A stretch of DNA of 64,000 nt, taken from Chiloscyllium plagiosum. Its lineage: Eukaryota. The notes under the pieces were generated by a model that saw nothing but the letters and a program-made list of their open reading frames with translations, ran no database searches and was not told the origin of the DNA. This document shows positions 7,948-49,994 of the stretch, in pieces. Location of the stretch: NCBI RefSeq assembly GCF_004010195.1, contig NC_057714.1, positions 7,866,492-7,930,491 on the forward strand, given 5' to 3'. Numbering within the stretch: position 1 is the stretch's first letter; each line of letters opens with the position of its first letter. The position numbers were made by a program, and so were the translations under genes.

Positions 7948-8574
7948 CACATGAAAACTACCTTTTCTTAATCCACCACTATTCAGTGTGGACAGTAATT
8001 CAGTAATACTGTACTCGTTTAATATTTACTTGTTTTACATGCAGCAAACGAGGCTGCTTATATACTTGAATCCTTGTGTCTGTTGTCGTGATTATCCCTG
8101 TGACTGGGCCTTTGTGCTTGGGCGGTGTCCGAGTAAAGATCGTGTAAACAAAAAGAAAGAAAAATCTCAATTTAACTCAGGATGTTTAATATAAAGAGAA
8201 CAGGCTGTGTAGTGCATATGAAATGTTATTTTCGTGGTGAACTTGGAACATACATTGTATTATTTTCACTGTGAATGAACCTGTAGAAACTCCAGGCTTT
8301 CGCTGTCTTTGTGAGACTGAGTAACGGCCTTGCCCGGGGTGCATGACGATTGTGTTGTTCTTCAGAAATTATATGAAACTGATTTGCATAGAATGCTAAT
8401 ATAAGTTGTATTTCAAAGAGCAGCGCTGAGCATAATGCTACACGATACTCTTGTCTGTTGTGAGAAAAGCACGAATAAAGTTCTCAGACACTTTGTATTT
8501 ATCGGTGTTGTGGTGCAAAGAAAAGTGTAAGATTTGGTTTAAAACTACCTATATGTATAACTAGTAACTACCTA
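7948..8574 (+). promoter_or_regulatory. miR-196 target sites in HoxA9 3' UTR
   Basis: ACTACCT at 7957-7963 (extended match CACATGAAAACTACCT). 8mers ACTACCTA at 8544-8551 and 8567-8574. Confidence 0.75.
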
Positions 8575-9949
8575 TGTTTTGTGTGTAAGTGTCGCCCTTA
8601 AAATTGTTTTGACACATTTATGCGATGGAATAAATAAACAAGCAACATTGTCAATAAATGTAATGTGTACAAGTAAAATGCCTGGGTGCAATAGAAGGAA
8701 CATATACCACCAATGTGTTTTAAATGGGGAGGGGGTTGTCTTTAAACCTGTAGAGCAACACATTTACACTTGTGTACACGTTTGAAATGATTACCTCGTG
8801 TCATATTGACCAAACTATACTGTTTGTAATGAAATGTCATTTTATTTGTTGTCTAATAAAATATATGTTTGACTACATATAAAATATGGTCTCTCTTTCT
8901 GAAGCTCAATATATGCAAACATCTCGCATGGAACTCCTCAACTATATATTTTTAAAATTTCACCAGCACTGCAGGATCCCCAAAGCTCCCCATTCGGAGC
9001 AGAAAAATTTTAAAATGTGCACATTTCCTTCTACCGTTATTTTAAATAGGTGAATCAAAATTTAAACTGTCAGGCGAACAAGTTAATTAAAATATGTCAT
9101 GGCAATAAAAATAATCCAATCCCCTTACTAATATTAAAAACAGTGTCCGTAATATCACCCAATTGCACTGTTTGCAAACATTAATGATGTACTTCATATT
9201 CAATCTTTGGATTTTACCACAAACTATGACATTGAAAACGTGACTTAAAGTTTGGCTTCTCCTTAGTAAATACTGCAACGAAATGTTATCACCACTGTTG
9301 ACATAACATGACTTAAGAGGGGTAACTAACTTTGGCATAAGATTGGAATTTATGGAAAAGGGAAGAAAATACTAAGTGTGATCTAACAACTTTGGCTTGG
9401 AAGCGGATATCATGACAAAGATGCAGAATGCGATTGAGTTTAACGCCCGGTTATCACCAATTAACCCGAGAACGTACAAACCTGTGGATTAACAACTTTT
9501 ATTTGTCGCCTGGCCATGCGCCAAGGCCTCTGGTTATTTATATGATTTGTTGTGTGCTACTTATCCGAGAAATGCAGCACTTCTGCTGCAAGTGGAAATG
9601 AATAATCTTGAGTTGTTTGCCCGTGTGAAGAGGTTCAAAATTGTTGGGATTTTATCGGATTAAAACGAGGCAAATAATTCTAGAAAGTCGCACTGGTTCA
9701 AATCCCTGCCGCCATTTCTTTAACTGATCAACCAAGAAGTGTCGAATTCCTCAGAAGAAAAGTATACTAGTCTAAAGCGAATGTTGGGTAGCGCTTGGCT
9801 TTTTTTGTAACTTCCCTTCCAACTGCAAGATCCCTAGTAACTTTTTTTTTAAGACTCCGACGACAGTTTGGATAGATTTAGTGGGATTCAAATGATTTGG
9901 AAACTGAGCAGAGAGGCCTAAGTAGTTAGAAGTCTTGGCAGTGGCTGTT

Positions 9950-10330
9950 GTTAGTAAAATCCAGAGTGGTGTACCGCAATAAAAGCAAATGACTGCTGTA
10001 AGCGTTTATGGGGTGTAAAACGCTGGAGGTTAAGGGGCGAAGTGCATAAACACGACACTGACGATCTTTATTTGGAGTATTCTTCAGTATTTAGCGGCAA
10101 ACACTCGGATAGCATTGCAATCTTTGTTTTATTATTATTATTTCATTAGACAACGGCGAAATTGATTTTTTAAATTTTATTTTCAAACAAGTCCTCAGTC
10201 TGAGGGGTTATAATGTTGTGACGCCCTCTGTTGTTGCATCTGGAACTTCAAAGACTACACAAGGAGACTTGCAATAAAATGAAGGGTCTGGCAAGCCGTC
10301 TGGAATTCGGGTTTAATGAGTTTACAACTG
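9950..10330. promoter_or_regulatory. Cdx/posterior-Hox site cluster between HoxA9 and the HoxA8 relic (candidate enhancer)
   Basis: GTAAAA, GCAATAAAA (x2), TTTATGG, TGTAAAAC and TTTAATGAGTTTACAAC are clustered. They resemble Cdx-dependent Hox8/Hox7 early enhancers. Motif-level evidence only. Confidence 0.45.
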
Positions 10331-10667
10331 TCCAGCTACAATCAGTATTTTTCCAGAGAAGGCAATCCATTTGTTTTGTCTGGCTGCCTAGACAAAAGGG
10401 TCTGCGGAAATAACGACCTTTATTAGTCTCGTCTTTAACACGGGCCCCTCAAATATCGTTTTACTAATTTATTGCGTCTAGTGGGGAAAAAATAACAGGT
10501 CTTTTAGTTATTTTGAAGCGTGGTTTAACCCTATTTACAATTTAACGTGATAGATATAAGAACGAATATTGTGGAAAAACGGTGTAGGTATTGGCTTCTT
10601 TGCAGTTTAAAAAGGGTTTGTGTGCATTCTCAGCCTGCAATTTCACAGTTGCACTTTTACGTATTTA

Positions 10668-11816: not shown

Positions 11817-13790
11817 ATTGACACCCTTAACGATCACGTGAATAATAACAATAAATACCGTGGTAAGTGATAAAACTAATGACGCTCGGATTAATTAATC
11901 TTGTCAAGAAAACTTCAGTGCAATGTATTCAATTTTATTTTCAATATCGACATACATTTATAAAGCCTGGATACTTATTGGCACAGCGCAAAACCAAGCC
12001 AGAATTCAGACAGCAGCTAACAAGCTTCTACTTCCGTTAATATGCTGCATAGAAGGAATGGGGGGTACTATTATAGCCATATAATACGTTGGAAACAACA
12101 ACAAATGACGTGTAACGAAATCCGAGATCTATGTATTCCAAAACATACTGTCGGGAAAGTCTGCGTTATCAGTCGATGACAAATTCAAATAAATGCTTAG
12201 TGATCACTTTGCCATTTTGTCGATTGATACGCAGGATTCCCAGCTACAAATCAGGATAATCTGTTACTATGCAACATAATCATTAATGTTTCACATGTGC
12301 CTGTAGGCAGAGCAAAATAAAATTATAACAAGCTGTTCCAACTACTAAGAGAAAAAAAAAATAGACAACTTTACTAGACATAGAGCTGTGTCCGGAAATA
12401 TAGAAGACATTGGACTTTCAGAAATTTAGAAATGTACCATTGTCACTTAAATGTTGAGCAAAACATAACGCGTGGGACAACGTTGAATATTTGTCTGTCT
12501 GTGAAATTAAGAAGTGATATGAGTATACTCCAGATGGGTTTTTTTTCTTTCAGTCTCCAGGCTAAAAGAACAGAACCAGTTTGAAATTCTTCGATTCATA
12601 AACATATCATGGGTTACTGACCAACCATTTAGGTCAATTGATTTTGTTTCAAAAATACACGATAACCTTTGAAGTCATGGCTATAATAATTTGCTAATTC
12701 GTTTGAAAAATCCGTGGAGTTTTCTTTGTCTCTATACTTCCTCCGGCTCAAGCTGGTAATAGAATGTGATGGTGAATACGTCTCCAGATCCCGGATAATT
12801 AAGGTAAAAAAAACTATTTCAGATTGCTGCTCAATAAAGCTTCTACGTTATTGCCGTAGTGGAGAAATCTTATTTAATGGAATATTAGAATGCACAACAA
12901 ATTATGGTGTTCATTAAGATGTTGGGGTATGCATTTTAGTGATAAACATTGGGCCGTGTATTTGCAATGCTCGATGGCCGTCAGTGCGTGGAATCTTTAG
13001 GTCATGAGAAACGGCGAAATAAACAGCAATTTTTTTAAAAAAACTCTTTTCGCAGACATTTATTTCATATTATTAAATAATAATATTTCAGATGTGTGCT
13101 CGAGCAACAAACATTGTCCTTACTTTAACAGCGTTCATTTGTTATGTTTGGACTACAAACTCACAAGTGAAAATGTTGACTTTACTGGCAAACGGTCTAG
13201 CTATAGTGTACTTTCCTAAAGTGTCCTCTTTTCCTGATTTGTACTTCCCCGATTATTATTGGTGATTTATTTCCTTGCAGTTGAAGTGCAATCCGGAACG
13301 ATATTTTTTTTTAACCGAGAAATCTTTTGACCTGGAATATACATTTTTAAAAAGTTCTCCCATATTTCTGATAACTGACTGTATATTTTTTTTCTTATTC
13401 TGGACTTAGAAGGTAATAATAGCAATCGCCGCTGATTGCAGTGATGGACATTTTATTTATAAACTCTCACCATGTTTGTGTCTGGTAAAAATCGGCTTCA
13501 GACATATTTTAATAGAGGAAAGATCCGAATTCACACCGCAATCTAGAGCGCTTCCCGAAACATCTATCGTCCTTTCGTTGTAGGTATGCACAGGAGACAT
13601 GGAAGCATACAGATCGTGCAGTCTTTTTCCAGTAAGTATAGTTCTTTTAACGAGCGAGGAGCGAAGGTAGTGCAATAACTTCCTGATAAGCGTTTCTGCT
13701 GGTGTGAAGCCTGTCTGTTCAGCACAGAGATTGGGACATGCCAGAGGAGACTCCAGAGATCAAAAGAAAACAACATTTCCGAATAGCAGA
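11817..13790 (+). pseudogene. Highly decayed HoxA8 pseudogene
   Basis: Collinear relics, in order: ATTGA..TCACGTG (11817-11840); ACA-AGC-TTC-TAC-TTC-c-GTT-AAT-ATG-CTG ~ MSSYFVN.L (12020-12047); acceptor CCTTTCGTTGTAG (to 13583); homeobox fragments (13592-13733); AAA GAA AAC AAC a TTT CCG AAT AGC AGA = KENN..FPNSR (13763-13790), similar to the Hox8 tail KENNKDKFP.S. Confidence 0.75.
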
Positions 13791-14530
13791 GCAAACAGTT
13801 CCTAAAATATCCCAGACGGAAAGGCAGAAACATGTTTTTATTGTAATAATCCTTTACTATTAACACACCAGGTGCATACTTCCTAGACTGTCTAGCTGCT
13901 GTAAATGCTGGCTGTGCTTTCCTACGCCTAACCCTGACAAAATATGCCTATTAATGTGGAACATAAAAGCAACTGATCCGCTCGAGAGGAACGAAAACCC
14001 TAGACACAGTAACTGGTCAATATGCCCGGACATTGTGGACAACAGCTTCGGAGACAAGTTCTGTGATCTAACGAGAGGATTGGGAAAGAGCGAGCGAGAG
14101 AGAGAGAGAGAAAAAAGTTGTAAAACAGAAGGCGGAAACGATACCCGGGGTAAATCCCCTGTGGGGTTCCAATCAGATTACCTAGCAACTCTAAAAGGTT
14201 TCCGCGGAATAGTTGTTTCACTGAAACCCGCCAGAGGAAATGTGGTCACCCCCAAAGTGAACTCGTGCATTTTAATAAATCAATAGATGACCATGCTTGA
14301 ATGTTAAAACAAAAATCCGAGCGTTCGCATCAGAGGTAGCAATACAGCCATCTTGCGCTTTGATCCTGCAGCATATATCTTGTACCTATAACTCTCACTA
14401 TTTGCCTATAATTGATTTGTTTTATAATTTCGAGTTTAGATGTACATCCAATCTAAATTCAGCAAGTCTCCAGTGTCTCTGAAACTGTACAGTGCCTTGA
14501 TGGCATCGTTAGACAGCAAACAACTACACG

Positions 14531-14588
14531 GGGTTGGGGAGGGGGCGGGGGGGGGGGGGGGGGGGGGGGTAGCAAGGGATGTTGGGGG
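14531..14588 (+). repeat. poly-G / G-rich tract (G-quadruplex potential) upstream of HoxA7
   Basis: An uninterrupted run of more than 20 G plus flanking G-runs. Confidence 0.85.
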
Positions 14589-14992
14589 TAAAGAATAAAG
14601 AGAGAAATGCAACTGCTCACTTATTTTCAATTCTTCCACGTAACCTTTTCTTTTAAACCAAACATTACAGAATGTTCCTAAATGTTACACCAGTGCGACT
14701 ATACTAGTCATGATTTCTGCTTCTTTTAAAATGTAACCAAATCGTATGGGTCTCTTTGCACTTCCAGATTCATCACACATCTTATTCTCAACAATGTTGG
14801 AATCATACCTGCGTTCCTAAACATGTAAATGGCACAGTGGCTTGGGAAAGAAATTAACAGAAGACATTGACCTTTTAAGGTGACACAGTCTATCGACACT
14901 TCCAATATTAAAAGATTGTGTGCGATTTTTGTACAATATCTTTTTGAAAATAGTCGAATACATGCTATTTACCACCTGTGATGTGGAATGCT

Positions 14993-15156
14993 ATTGGGTG
15001 ACGGGATCACATGGCCAGGTCACGTGAATAGAAATAAGTCGGGCCGAAGGAAAATGGGTGCTTGGTGTAAATCGGGGGTGTAATGCTACCATTTATCACG
15101 CTATCTCGTAAAACCGACACTGAAGAGTCCTGGCCAACAAATCACCAGACAAAATT
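14993..15156 (+). promoter_or_regulatory. HoxA7 promoter / 5' UTR
   Basis: ATTGG at 14993-14997, CACATG at 15008-15013 and CACGTG at 15021-15026. Followed by TCGTAAAACCGACAC and CAAATCAC...AAATTATG, typical of Hox7 leaders. Confidence 0.8.
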
Positions 15157-16920: not shown

Positions 16921-17958
16921 ACTACCTATGTGTTTTAATAACCTCTTTCGAAATCATGTCTTTAAAAATTAAAGTTCGCTGATTTAGATTTCATCTTTTC
17001 AAAAAATAAATCAAAATCTTTATTGGCATTAGTAGAGAGCTAAGAATTGAGTCCAGAATCCATGTTTTCAGTAACAAAAGGAAAGTGGAAGGACTGAGAA
17101 CAATTGTCTGCAAATGTTACAAGGCAGGCAGTCAAATTGAAATGCTTGATTTCTCAAGTTTTAATTGAGAATCTCTGCCCGCAATATTACAAGGAACGCG
17201 AAAGAAATTCGAAATCCTTCTTCTCTATTGTTAAAATGAAATGAATTGAATTTGGATTCTGAATCTGCCATAGTGCAATTATCGGGATACATTAGCCGAT
17301 AAAACTAAATGTGACCATTGCTCTAACCTATGTAATGCAAAATTCAAATGTCATTGCGTGTTTTAAAATATATCTCATGCACTGAACTACTTCTCAAACT
17401 TACTTTACTTCTGTTAATGTCTTCTTCACGTGTTTTGAAATATTCTTGCACAGTATTCACAAAACAAAAATACCCGTGATAATAGATAGTCGACCCCAGC
17501 CCAATCAGAGACCAAGTTCTTGAGCCACTCTAACATACATAGCAAGAATGGCCAGAAGGCTAACTAGTCGAATAAAGTAGTTTATTTCTATTCAAATTTT
17601 CGTTCTTATTATTTTTTACATTACTTCTCAATTAATCTCTGAGTGTGCCACTATACACCGAGATGTACCGTTCTATTAACAAAATGAAGAAGATTTGTCT
17701 TTTCGCATAAGCAATGAAATGTAACTACCTAGACCACAATAGTGGACATCTTGCACGTCTTTGGAAACTACCTAAATGTTCGAATTAAATATTCGTTTCT
17801 TGACAGAGAGTGTTCTTGAAGTCTAGACTTTTCACACTTCTCTAAACAGTACCCATTATATGAGAACAAAAATGTGAATAATATTCCGATGTATGTTTTT
17901 TTTTTAAATGAGGTGCATATATAGCCACTTTATAACACAACATAATGATAACTACCTA
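16921..17958 (+). promoter_or_regulatory. Four miR-196 8mer sites in HoxA7 3' UTR
   Basis: ACTACCTA at 16921, 17724, 17767 and 17951. Distal AATAAA at 18024-18029. Confidence 0.85.
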
Positions 17959-19404
17959 GATACCGGTTTACATTTGACGCGGATGGAGTTGTTTCGTACT
18001 GTGCTTAAATACTATAATGTAAAAATAAACAGTAAAACAAGTTATATATGAATGGGGGAAATTGCTATATTTCTCTCTGATTGATGGCATTAAAATATAT
18101 ACCTGCTAAAGATTTCAAGCAACCATGTATCATTGAATGATGTAATTGTCTTTCTTTTAAGTTTGTTGTGTCAGTTGTCTTATACATGTGTACTGTCTAA
18201 ATTATAAACATTTTAAAAAACTGTAACCAAATGTAATAATAGAAATTTCGAGCAGCATCGTCGACTAGATATATTGTGGTTCCATATTCAGTATGGTATC
18301 TGTCAATGGAAAGTTTGCTTTGTAATATGTGTATGTGTTGTTAAATAATATCTGATGTTAAAGGTTTAAGGTGCAATCTATTTAAAATGCATATATTCGT
18401 TCCAGTCTTGTATACTTTGAATGGAGTCTCTGTAGACAAACAAAAATGAGAAACATTAAACGGTGCTTGAATAAACAGACTGTCTTTCCTGGCCTGAGCA
18501 GATTACCACCAAATGAGTGGCCCCATGATTCGTTAACACACAGAAGTACGATCATTAACAGCAGCAATTAAAAATAAATTATTTCAGAGTAACAAATACA
18601 TATTTCTATATTGTAGTCCATTCATTGCCATACAATCTGTTTTTCATAAAAGAACAAATGAATCCATAATTTTTGTCCACGAAATGGGCACGTTTCAAAC
18701 AGATTAAAACTGAATATGTCAAAGTCTTTTGTGCACATTATGCTCTGTTAATTATCGTTGACAATAATATTTTTAAAAAGGCCGTATTTGCGAGCAATGC
18801 ATTCGAATTAAGACGCAGGTTGGGTCGACGATGGGCTAAAGTTCTCATGAAGCAAGCTGGACCCGACGCCTGATCGAGCTCATTTCCCTTTCAGAGAGTC
18901 TAAGAAAAATGGAAAAGATGAGAACACAGTGAGCGTAGTGTCTGGTTTCATAACGACCAAAAATTAAAATCAAATTAAAAAAAAGAATCGAGTCGCTATT
19001 TCATCGCCGAGCTTTGAATGAATATTCGGACAGGCGCAGACTTTATTTGTAATGCATGCAGTGCGGCACTGTAACTTGTAGCTCGATCCCAAGATACGGG
19101 ACGAGCTCATTGCCATTTTTGAAATGCAACATATTCAAGAAACGAGTAAACCAGAAGAAATGTCGATAGAACAAATCTGATGATACGTAAACCAGAATTG
19201 ATTCGTTACAATAGTCGCCTGAAAGCAGAAACTAGTGATTTCTGTGAAAAAAAAGCACGGATTGCAAACGGGTGTTATGGACATATTAATGTAGCTTCAG
19301 AAATTACAAAATTATTTTTAAACCGTGGAAAAAATCTTTCATAATTTCACAATTTTAACCTGACTCTTTGTTAAAAATGGCGTCTAAGACCTGCCTCCTA
19401 ATAG

Positions 19405-19550
19405 TCATGGGGAAATGTCATAAATCCGTTGTTGTTTTATGAAAATTTACAACTTTGCAATAGAACTTTACGAGTTGTTCGGTTTTTCCATTGGCCACTG
19501 AAAGTCATGTGGAGTGTAACCGTGAACATGAACTTTTTATAATTTCCCTT
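19405..19550 (+). promoter_or_regulatory. H8/7-6 four-cluster conserved element / distal promoter of long HoxA5-HoxA3 transcripts
   Basis: GTCATAAATCCGTTGTTGTTTTATGAAAATTTACAACTTTGCAATAGAACTTTACGAG...CCATTGG..GTCATGTG..GTGAACATGAACTTTTTAT is recalled as the conserved block between paralog groups 7/8 and 6. YY1-like AAAATGGCG at 19374-19382. Confidence 0.75.
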
Positions 19551-19559
19551 GCGACTATA

Positions 19560-19976
19560 GAACTGCATTCTTTTGCTAAGCGCGTGTTGGTTCGGATGTG
19601 AGAGCTTGCGGGCTTTCAGCAACGCATATTTTGTTCTTTTTTCCCCCCTCCGAGCGCAGTGATTATTCGCCTATGGAGCTTCAATGCATCCAAGCTTTCG
19701 GCACAGATCCTATGGCTGGCAGCTACGAATTCCTCCACGGAAGGTGGAGCATTGGATTAAAAAGCGCCGGCTCTGATCCGCACGGCAGTTTCCTGCAGGT
19801 CGTCACCAAACGCCGCTGGCGGAATGCGAGAGCCAGGGGCCTGGGATGGAGCTGAACGGACAGCTGTCAAACTAGACATGGGCTCTGCAAACACTGACAC
19901 TGGGGCTCAGCAAATACCACAGCCGGTTTGTGCAGAGTCCGGACTAGCCAGACCGAGGGGAGGAATCTGCAGCAAG
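19560..19976 (+). ncRNA. candidate non-coding first exon downstream of the distal promoter
   Basis: A GC/CpG-rich segment ending in the strong donor AAG|GTAAGG at 19977. The start coordinate is approximate. Confidence 0.5.
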
Positions 19977-48800: not shown

Positions 48801-49418
48801 TATATCTAAATAATGCCTAAAAAAATGAAGAGTAAAATGAATCGTGTAGCAATGATTAGTGCATAACGTGCAAATCCCATTTGTTCTACCATGCTGTTCG
48901 ATTTCAACCTTACCTTCGTAACGTAATGGGACTTAGCTCTCCTCAAGACTGGAGCAGCTGTTTCCTAAATCAACTCCGCATAAATGTACTGCCAGTTTGC
49001 AAGCATACTAGCCTAACAATGAACCACAGAAACTTTATTGTATGTGCGTAATAACCAGATTTGATCCAGATTCTGCTAACAATTATTTTTAAGTCACGTG
49101 AACGGATTCCATAAGGGTTTTCTTCCCCCTCGATTTGGCCCAGCTTGTTTGCCGGGCTCCTTTTCTCTCTCTCTCACTTTAATGCATACATCTCACCGAA
49201 AACCAGTACCCCCCGACATCTGCAGAAGCGTATAAGGCAAATAGTTTGTATTTGCAGGACGCTGAATCAGTAGGAAGGAGTGAAATTTCCTTCTCCTGAT
49301 GGTCTGATTTGAAAGGATTTTGCAGAAAGAGAAGCCGTCCAGAGTAAGCAGAGAGCAATAAAGTCAAAACAGCCGGATAGCCTGGAACATGTAGACTCTT
49401 CAGTGTGCATTGAAACTT

Positions 49419-49452
49419 CCCCCCCCCCCCCCCCCCCCCTCTCGCCTCCCCT
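49419..49452 (+). repeat. poly-C tract
   Basis: A run of about 21 C. Confidence 0.85.
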
Positions 49453-49994
49453 TGTAAAGCACATTACCAATTTCGCAGCAGGCTTTATCTGTCCTCTGAG
49501 GATGGTTTGGATTTTGCTGAATTCTCAGGTAAGCTGGAAGATTTATTTGTAGCTCTGTCTATTTGCACACAGGATAAACTCCTGTCCAATTTGTAATTTA
49601 TGGCACAAAACTTGACTCAAGTGAAATTATTTCTTATCGTCAAACCCGATAACCCTTTCTTTTCGAATTCTTCTATTCTTATAATGTTCATTTCCATTGT
49701 AGTTGTGTCCTGGAACATTTCAAGGTTGAACTTTGCCAATTTAAAGTTTGTACTAGAATTGTAACACCACAACTAAATCAAAATTAACCATTAGTCGCTA
49801 TAACAGGAAGACTAGTCAACTTTGGGCATTTCAGCCTCAAGCCTCTTTGAGCTGTGAGAGCGAATTATTGCTTTGATATGTTCCACTTGCCCAACAACAG
49901 TGACTTAAAGATTTCTTCCAACTTTAGCCTCTGAATAATTGATCTTGTCTCTGTTCCAAAGTTTCTTGCATATTTCAAAGAAACACGGTTTAAG

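Follow-up and report, generated by a model that had tools for sequence, protein, structure and literature searches.

Between HoxA9 and HoxA7 of Chiloscyllium plagiosum, positions 13562-13790 on the + strand probably represent a decayed, non-coding HoxA8 exon 2 that has drifted neutrally. Positions are those of the window, the 64-kb stretch of DNA that was analyzed. The candidate sits at the place expected of a group-8 gene, carries an acceptor-like site and a block in register with it, and has broken reading frames. Since its position, its acceptor phase, and an in-register block covering helix 3 and the tail all fit, no other single reading is as likely as a decayed HoxA8 exon 2. The original prediction had described a legible HoxA8 fossil, wording that overstates a faint match.

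The homeobox exons of HoxA9, A7, A6, A5, A4, and A3 mark the + strand genes of the window, and mir-196 (492-565) is its only Rfam match. A search of the same genome with the A7 exon (80 matches; 150 of 172 candidates scored) retrieved three Hox clusters on three contigs, which we labeled A, B, and D from their translations, using the features of the paralogue groups. No C cluster appeared among those 80 matches. Three clusters without C match the elasmobranch pattern reported in PMC3707753 and PMC5054437. Both the B and D clusters hold an intact group-8 gene ending in KENNKDKFP, and the HoxB8 and HoxD8 queries were thus taken from the same animal as the candidate. From the end of A9 exon 2 (7701) to the start of A7 (15157), no intact homeobox motif was found.

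The position of a group-8 gene can be anchored on an element upstream of Hox7:

15062..15153, + strand: Hox7 promoter element, common to clusters A, B, and D

In blastn, window 15062 is matched by B 15886 and by D 10369 (region coordinates), and the element reaches z values of 32 and 13 when the B and D gaps are tiled on the A gap. Codon 1 of the candidate lies 1470 nt upstream of it; for the homeobox start, this distance is 1762 nt in B8 and 1369 nt in D8. The candidate also has the place and strand of an unprocessed Hox8 pseudogene, on the + strand between Hox9 and Hox7, and no + strand site of the A9-A7 gap scores better in any of the six parameter sets of the acceptor-model run or in separate profile scans. 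The chief alternative is that HoxA8 was deleted or decayed beyond recognition, and that a purine-rich, slightly GC-richer patch following a pyrimidine tract mimics a homeobox exon by chance; we regard this as possible, at roughly one-third. Deletion is allowed by the length of the A gap, which at 7.4 kb from the A9 stop to the promoter element is shorter than both gene-bearing gaps (8.5 kb in D and 11.7 kb in B). A chance match, however, would have to account for the best site of the 7.4-kb gap falling within the narrow zone, a few hundred bases wide, that two other clusters predict, and position played no part in choosing the site.

The putative exon divides into the following parts:

13562..13583, + strand: acceptor-like site of phase 1, made up of a pyrimidine tract and an AG, 8 nt upstream of codon 1 of the putative homeobox
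13592..13605, + strand: first five codons of the putative homeobox, reading R R H G S compared with R R R G R
13606..13726, + strand: middle of the putative homeobox, with unstable alignment and a stop in the acceptor frame at codon 29 (13676-13678)
13727..13774, + strand: best-preserved block, putative codons 46-61, EIGTCQRRLQRSKENN, gapless and with zero net offset from codon 1
13775..13790, + strand: possible FP-S tail, after an ~8-nt deletion

The original prediction included an intact acceptor, and this is borne out as far as sequence can tell. Scored with a matrix built from 29 Hox/ParaHox acceptors of the same genome (which themselves range from 6.0 to 16.1 bits), the AG at 13582-13583 reaches 9.0 bits and ranks fifth among the 404 AGs of the gap. 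Its spacing and phase are of the Hox7/8 type: the assigned distance from acceptor to homeobox is 8 nt in A7, B7, and D8 and 11 nt in B8. An unprocessed pseudogene should retain a remnant intron-exon boundary in the right phase, and the predicted acceptor would be such a boundary. By eye, the junction at 13583 can also be read as donor-like (AG/GTATG).

All strings on which the prediction had been built are present in the order given:

13571-13583, + strand: CCTTTCGTTGTAG, acceptor string, with the AG at 13582-13583
13592-13605, + strand: AGGAGACATGGAAG, start of the homeobox
13640-13651, + strand: AGTTCTTTTAAC
13654-13667, + strand: GCGAGGAGCGAAGG
13704-13709 and 13714-13733, + strand: GTGAAG, then TCTGTTCAGCACAGAGATTG
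13763-13790, + strand: AAAGAAAACAAC-A-TTTCCGAATAGCAGA, tail string

The one correction concerns the spacer between GTGAAG and TCTGTTCAGCACAGAGATTG, which is 4 nt and had been given as 2 nt. Likewise, no open reading frame survives, as stops interrupt all three + frames read from the acceptor. An open 60-residue homeodomain with WFQNRR, expected of a functional group-8 gene, is absent, helix 3 reading GTCQRR, and Pfam returned no matches for five translations near the candidate. A repeat search of 12800-14600 found nothing overlapping the candidate, which is also a single match in the genome search and so gives no sign of a repeat family, although the tool cautions that a single match is no proof of rarity. 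Two further counts were set aside: the exact motif count in the window (1 compared with 0 in 100 shuffles) is circular as evidence, and a metagenome pattern scan gave a single match that is unrelated beyond the pattern itself. Of 24 listed sequencing runs, 20 contain at least part of the stretch; they come from three organisms, include no RNA run on record, and count neither for nor against the relic.

The two ends of the putative homeobox are better preserved than its middle. Codons 1-5 share 8 of 15 nt with D8 and 7 of 15 with B8, a likeness that is commonplace when taken alone (15,837 of 422,174 positions); for codons 1-23 together with the acceptor, 8 of 400 shuffles score as high. In an ungapped comparison, codons 6-45 agree with D8 at 24 of 120 nt, and the best gapped alignments of the middle to B8 and to D8 conflict. 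The fragments previously read there as EFLFN and RKRR find no support by themselves (codons 24-46; 155 of 400 shuffles as high). At codons 46-61, identity rises to 30 of 48 nt with D8, 28 of 48 with A6, and 24 of 48 with B8, and only 9 of 422,174 non-homeobox positions reach 30 of 48 to D8, for block bounds picked by eye after the data had been viewed. When the bounds are left free, D8 alone is equaled in 9 of 300 shuffles within the expected zone and 35 of 100 gap-wide, and a B8+D8 mix in 58 of 300 and 94 of 100, respectively.

The register of this block is exact, with E59 at 13766 falling 58 codons from codon 1 (AGG, 13592). The earlier mapping of the GTGAAG..TCTGTTCAGCACAGAGATTG fragment would cost an insertion of ~20 nt, whereas the gapless register at 13727-13774 costs none; part of the earlier mapping was probably in the wrong register. 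Codons 58-69 are matched in score by 36 of 400 shuffles, and the best D8-only segment ends at 13792. Among 422,174 positions, 1 combines acceptor, head, and tail in a single frame at zero offset, namely the candidate itself; the thresholds are post hoc, but the coincidence argues against a chance origin. Overall, 10 of the 61 candidate residues are identical to B8/D8, compared with at most 8 for any of 28 other homeodomains. The candidate thus resembles HoxB8/HoxD8 exon 2 in its location between Hox9 and the Hox7 promoter element, in a phase-1 acceptor-like site 8 or 11 nt before the homeobox, and in the RR.G start, I47, R52, R53, K58, E59, N60, and N61. It differs in missing an open frame, W48, F49, N51, and exon 1 and in its unalignable middle, and its gapless identity of ~34% over 183 nt compares with 73 to 83% among living paralogues.

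Tests that make no use of the acceptor show a weak coding likeness. Plain local DNA alignment against 30 homeobox exons was rejected as support for Hox8, since 150 of 200 shuffles reach the B8 score and 63 of 200 the D8 score. Frameshift-aware protein alignment at two penalties is equaled by 32 and 10 of 500 shuffles for B8 and by 50 and 60 of 500 for D8; D10 and B10 outscore group 8 in this alignment, and D10 is equaled by 5 and 0 of 500. With a pair-HMM and a B8+D8 profile, 6 to 14 of 300 shuffles reach the candidate over 15 parameter sets, its scores are at most 0.1 bit, and it ranks 24th among 536 real non-coding windows. Scores no better than those of shuffled sequence had been named beforehand as grounds for dropping the prediction, and that is in part what emerged: locally, only 14 of 1000 shuffles reach the candidate in a larger run of this profile, but gap-wide, the best site is as good in 12 of 30 shuffled gaps and, with the acceptor term switched off, as high in 41 of 60. 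These gap-wide null results favor chance. Tiling of the B and D gaps (195 and 142 tiles) on the A gap yielded no Hox8 exon or UTR tile that is significant at the candidate, and clear matches occur only at 9889-10394 and at the Hox7 promoter.

Several other non-coding features are visible in the same region. The elements at 9889-10060 and 10226-10394 are common to the window and the B9-B8 gap and were not found in D; they are candidate Hox8/Hox7 regulatory elements that may have been retained past the loss of A8. A further intergenic element, between Hox7 and Hox6 (19402-19579), is common to A, B, and D. A long G run (14536-14568) separates the candidate from the A7 promoter.

Adding a splice-acceptor term to the profile changes the outcome. 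This optional term belongs to a fourth scoring scheme, introduced after weaker ones, and its results are to be read with the caution that the site was originally chosen partly for its acceptor. Local shuffles score as high in 2 of 400, 3 of 600, and 3 of 800 cases, and real windows in 0 of 524 and in 1 of 1599 (overlapping, from ~220 kb of Hox-cluster DNA). Gap-wide, the score is reached by 2 of 40, by 0 and 2 of 150, and by 0 to 4 of 60 shuffled gaps (five settings). Similarity to Hox8 exon 2 across the gap is thus null without the acceptor and equaled by 0 to 7% of shuffled gaps with it, so that the claimed excess over chance holds only with the splice-acceptor term and fails for plain DNA alignment and the gap-wide profile.

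Real DNA provides a harsher null than shuffles. Among nine control gaps that cannot hold a Hox8 relic, one outscores the 1.8 bits of the candidate at 3.4 bits and another nearly equals it at 1.7 bits, and both beat 20 of 20 shuffles, which again favors chance. The control sites that score like the candidate lie in the B7-B6 gap and in the window at ~49050-49550, and we treat them as chance matches. From ~2 in 9 gaps and a zone of about a tenth of a gap, we estimate the chance of such a match within the expected zone at ~0.02. Further points for a chance origin are that log-odds are near zero bits under all models and that GC and purine skew are raised at 13575-13824, with six of the seven other paralogue profiles also peaking at or beside the candidate window.

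The assignment to group 8 depends on the test. In the acceptor model with each group given its own acceptor spacing, group 8 fits best, being equaled in 0 of 30 shuffled gaps compared with 1 of 30 for group 3 and 13 to 23 of 30 for the other six, which speaks against chance; in the protein alignment, it is group 10 that comes out on top.

Other parts of the gene left little trace. Exon 1, which in a functional group-8 gene would carry an N-terminal MSSYF and an FPWM hexapeptide, was not found in the gap, either as a whole exon (107 of 300 shuffles) or as six blocks (26 to 283 of 300), and there was no gap peak. Apparent exon-1 motifs that had caught the eye around 12770-12840 and 13270-13300 gave no signal and were rejected, and an upstream motif common to B8 and D8 has no match in the gap at up to 3 mismatches. 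The mutation pattern of decayed coding sequence, expected of an unprocessed pseudogene, was likewise not detected: codon positions 1-2, sites where B8 equals D8, and transitions show no excess (1500 shuffles, four alignments), at low power owing to the unstable alignment. The absence of both exon 1 and a mutation signature in these tests adds to the case for chance. Downstream, one weak likeness was noted:

13930..13954, + strand: faint resemblance to the B8 3' UTR miR-196 site, ~150 nt past the tail (~450 nt in B8)

With the B8 site, it ranks 6th of 4264 windows (three of the five higher ones being the mir-196 gene itself), and with the D8 site, it ranks 121st. It is equaled by 6 to 28 of 500 shuffles in the pair-HMM and by 222 of 1000 in local alignment, and it adds 0.5 bit to the model. 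Alignment of the whole 3' UTR gave a null result.

The faintness of the signal is itself expected of a very old relic. At fourfold sites between the paralogues, 140 of 396 are identical, giving a K of ~1.5, or ~0.75 per lineage, a rough figure near saturation. Exons simulated at K 0.6 to 0.9 score at or below the candidate in 9 to 98% of runs, depending on indel rate, with a likelihood ratio of 4 to 23 against shuffles, whereas relics simulated at K of 0.5 or less with few indels score far above it. Faintness of this degree is therefore what a loss soon after the duplications should leave, and under this model, a recent loss of HoxA8 is excluded. We combined a likelihood ratio of ~5, which takes account of model choice and of the stricter null that real DNA sets, with a prior of ~0.25 for a traceable remnant, a judgment based on three sister losses that are traceless; descent from HoxA8, whatever came after, emerges as fairly probable. 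By the same tests, no coding relic of HoxD6, D7, or A12 was detectable.

In the history we propose, a HoxA8 copy would have arisen through the vertebrate genome duplications and been inactivated around the time when jawed vertebrates arose, or earlier. Exon 1 would have been erased or deleted, and exon 2 would have decayed neutrally in place within a slow-evolving, repeat-poor cluster. Faint traces would persist on either side of a scrambled middle, the acceptor and first codons before it and the helix-3/KENN block after it, in a relic that codes for no protein and most likely has no role.

Alternatively, selection may have preserved the HoxA8-derived sequence, either for a regulatory role or because a non-coding or read-through transcript still splices it in as an exon, which we consider highly improbable. 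After ~0.7 substitutions per site, it would be somewhat unexpected for the acceptor to match 10 of 29 working ones in strength and for the net length to be unchanged. The candidate has neither an Rfam match nor a counterpart among the conserved elements of B or D, and chondrichthyan HoxA non-coding DNA evolves slowly overall, according to PMC2746220, so that persistence needs no function. A related reading, somewhat less remote though still improbable, is that the relic is real and unreported and that its acceptor and helix-3 block kept their register because, long after the duplications, HoxA8 still survived in the stem of cartilaginous fishes or was constrained there, serving in regulation or as a spliced non-coding element. 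In that case, the gnathostome ancestor would have possessed either a fourth Hox8 gene or a pseudogene that was still fresh, and the loss of HoxA8 would have come later or happened twice.

To our knowledge, HoxA8 was lost long ago by all jawed vertebrates. A group-8 pseudogene was reportedly found in horn shark HoxM/HoxA by Kim et al. in 2000; if so, the candidate would be its ortholog, and the finding would not be new. Hoxa8 is named as non-existent in a passage of PMC3394115. The main text of the skate and horn shark comparison PMC2746220 does not contain the words "pseudogene," "Hoxa8," or "Hox8," and no description of a HoxA8 pseudogene was found in the text passages covered, which included some from PMC4686793 and PMC9456325. 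The candidate is possibly already in print.

Hox pseudogenes of cartilaginous fishes are a known kind, and the neutrally decayed HoxA8 exon 2 that we favor adds no new mechanism. The Hox14 pseudogenes (A and B) of chondrichthyans and the HoxA7 pseudogene of bichir, as described in PMC3707753, PMC3509897, and PMC1845163, are in-place, unprocessed remnants of lost paralogues, as the candidate would be. Those pseudogenes are reported as recognizable, and some stem from lineage-specific losses, whereas the candidate is at the limit of detection, and its loss would be common to jawed vertebrates. If confirmed, it would be physical evidence that HoxA8 died in place and was not deleted, and it would rank among the oldest coding remnants detectable in a vertebrate genome. 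If sharks, batoids, and chimaeras had lesions in common, these would show when the loss occurred with respect to the jawed-vertebrate split, which gene counts alone cannot do.

Some minor observations concern neighboring genes. When the posterior D region was compared by blastn with the 60 kb upstream of the window, nothing matching a HoxA14 pseudogene appeared in the 29 kb that precede A13; such a pseudogene may be more distant or have decayed too far. CTACCTA, a miR-196 seed-type site, occurs at 8545 and 8568 past A9 and at 16922, 17725, 17768, and 17952 past A7, the latter in agreement with the A7 miR-196 sites given in PMC2746220. The D cluster (D8-D5 interval) retains the Hox7 promoter element (73% over 94 nt) though HoxD7 is absent. 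From that promoter to the next common element, the distance is 2.4 kb in D compared with 4.0 to 4.4 kb in B and A, so that the D interval appears about one gene shorter, as if D7 had been deleted and its promoter retained.
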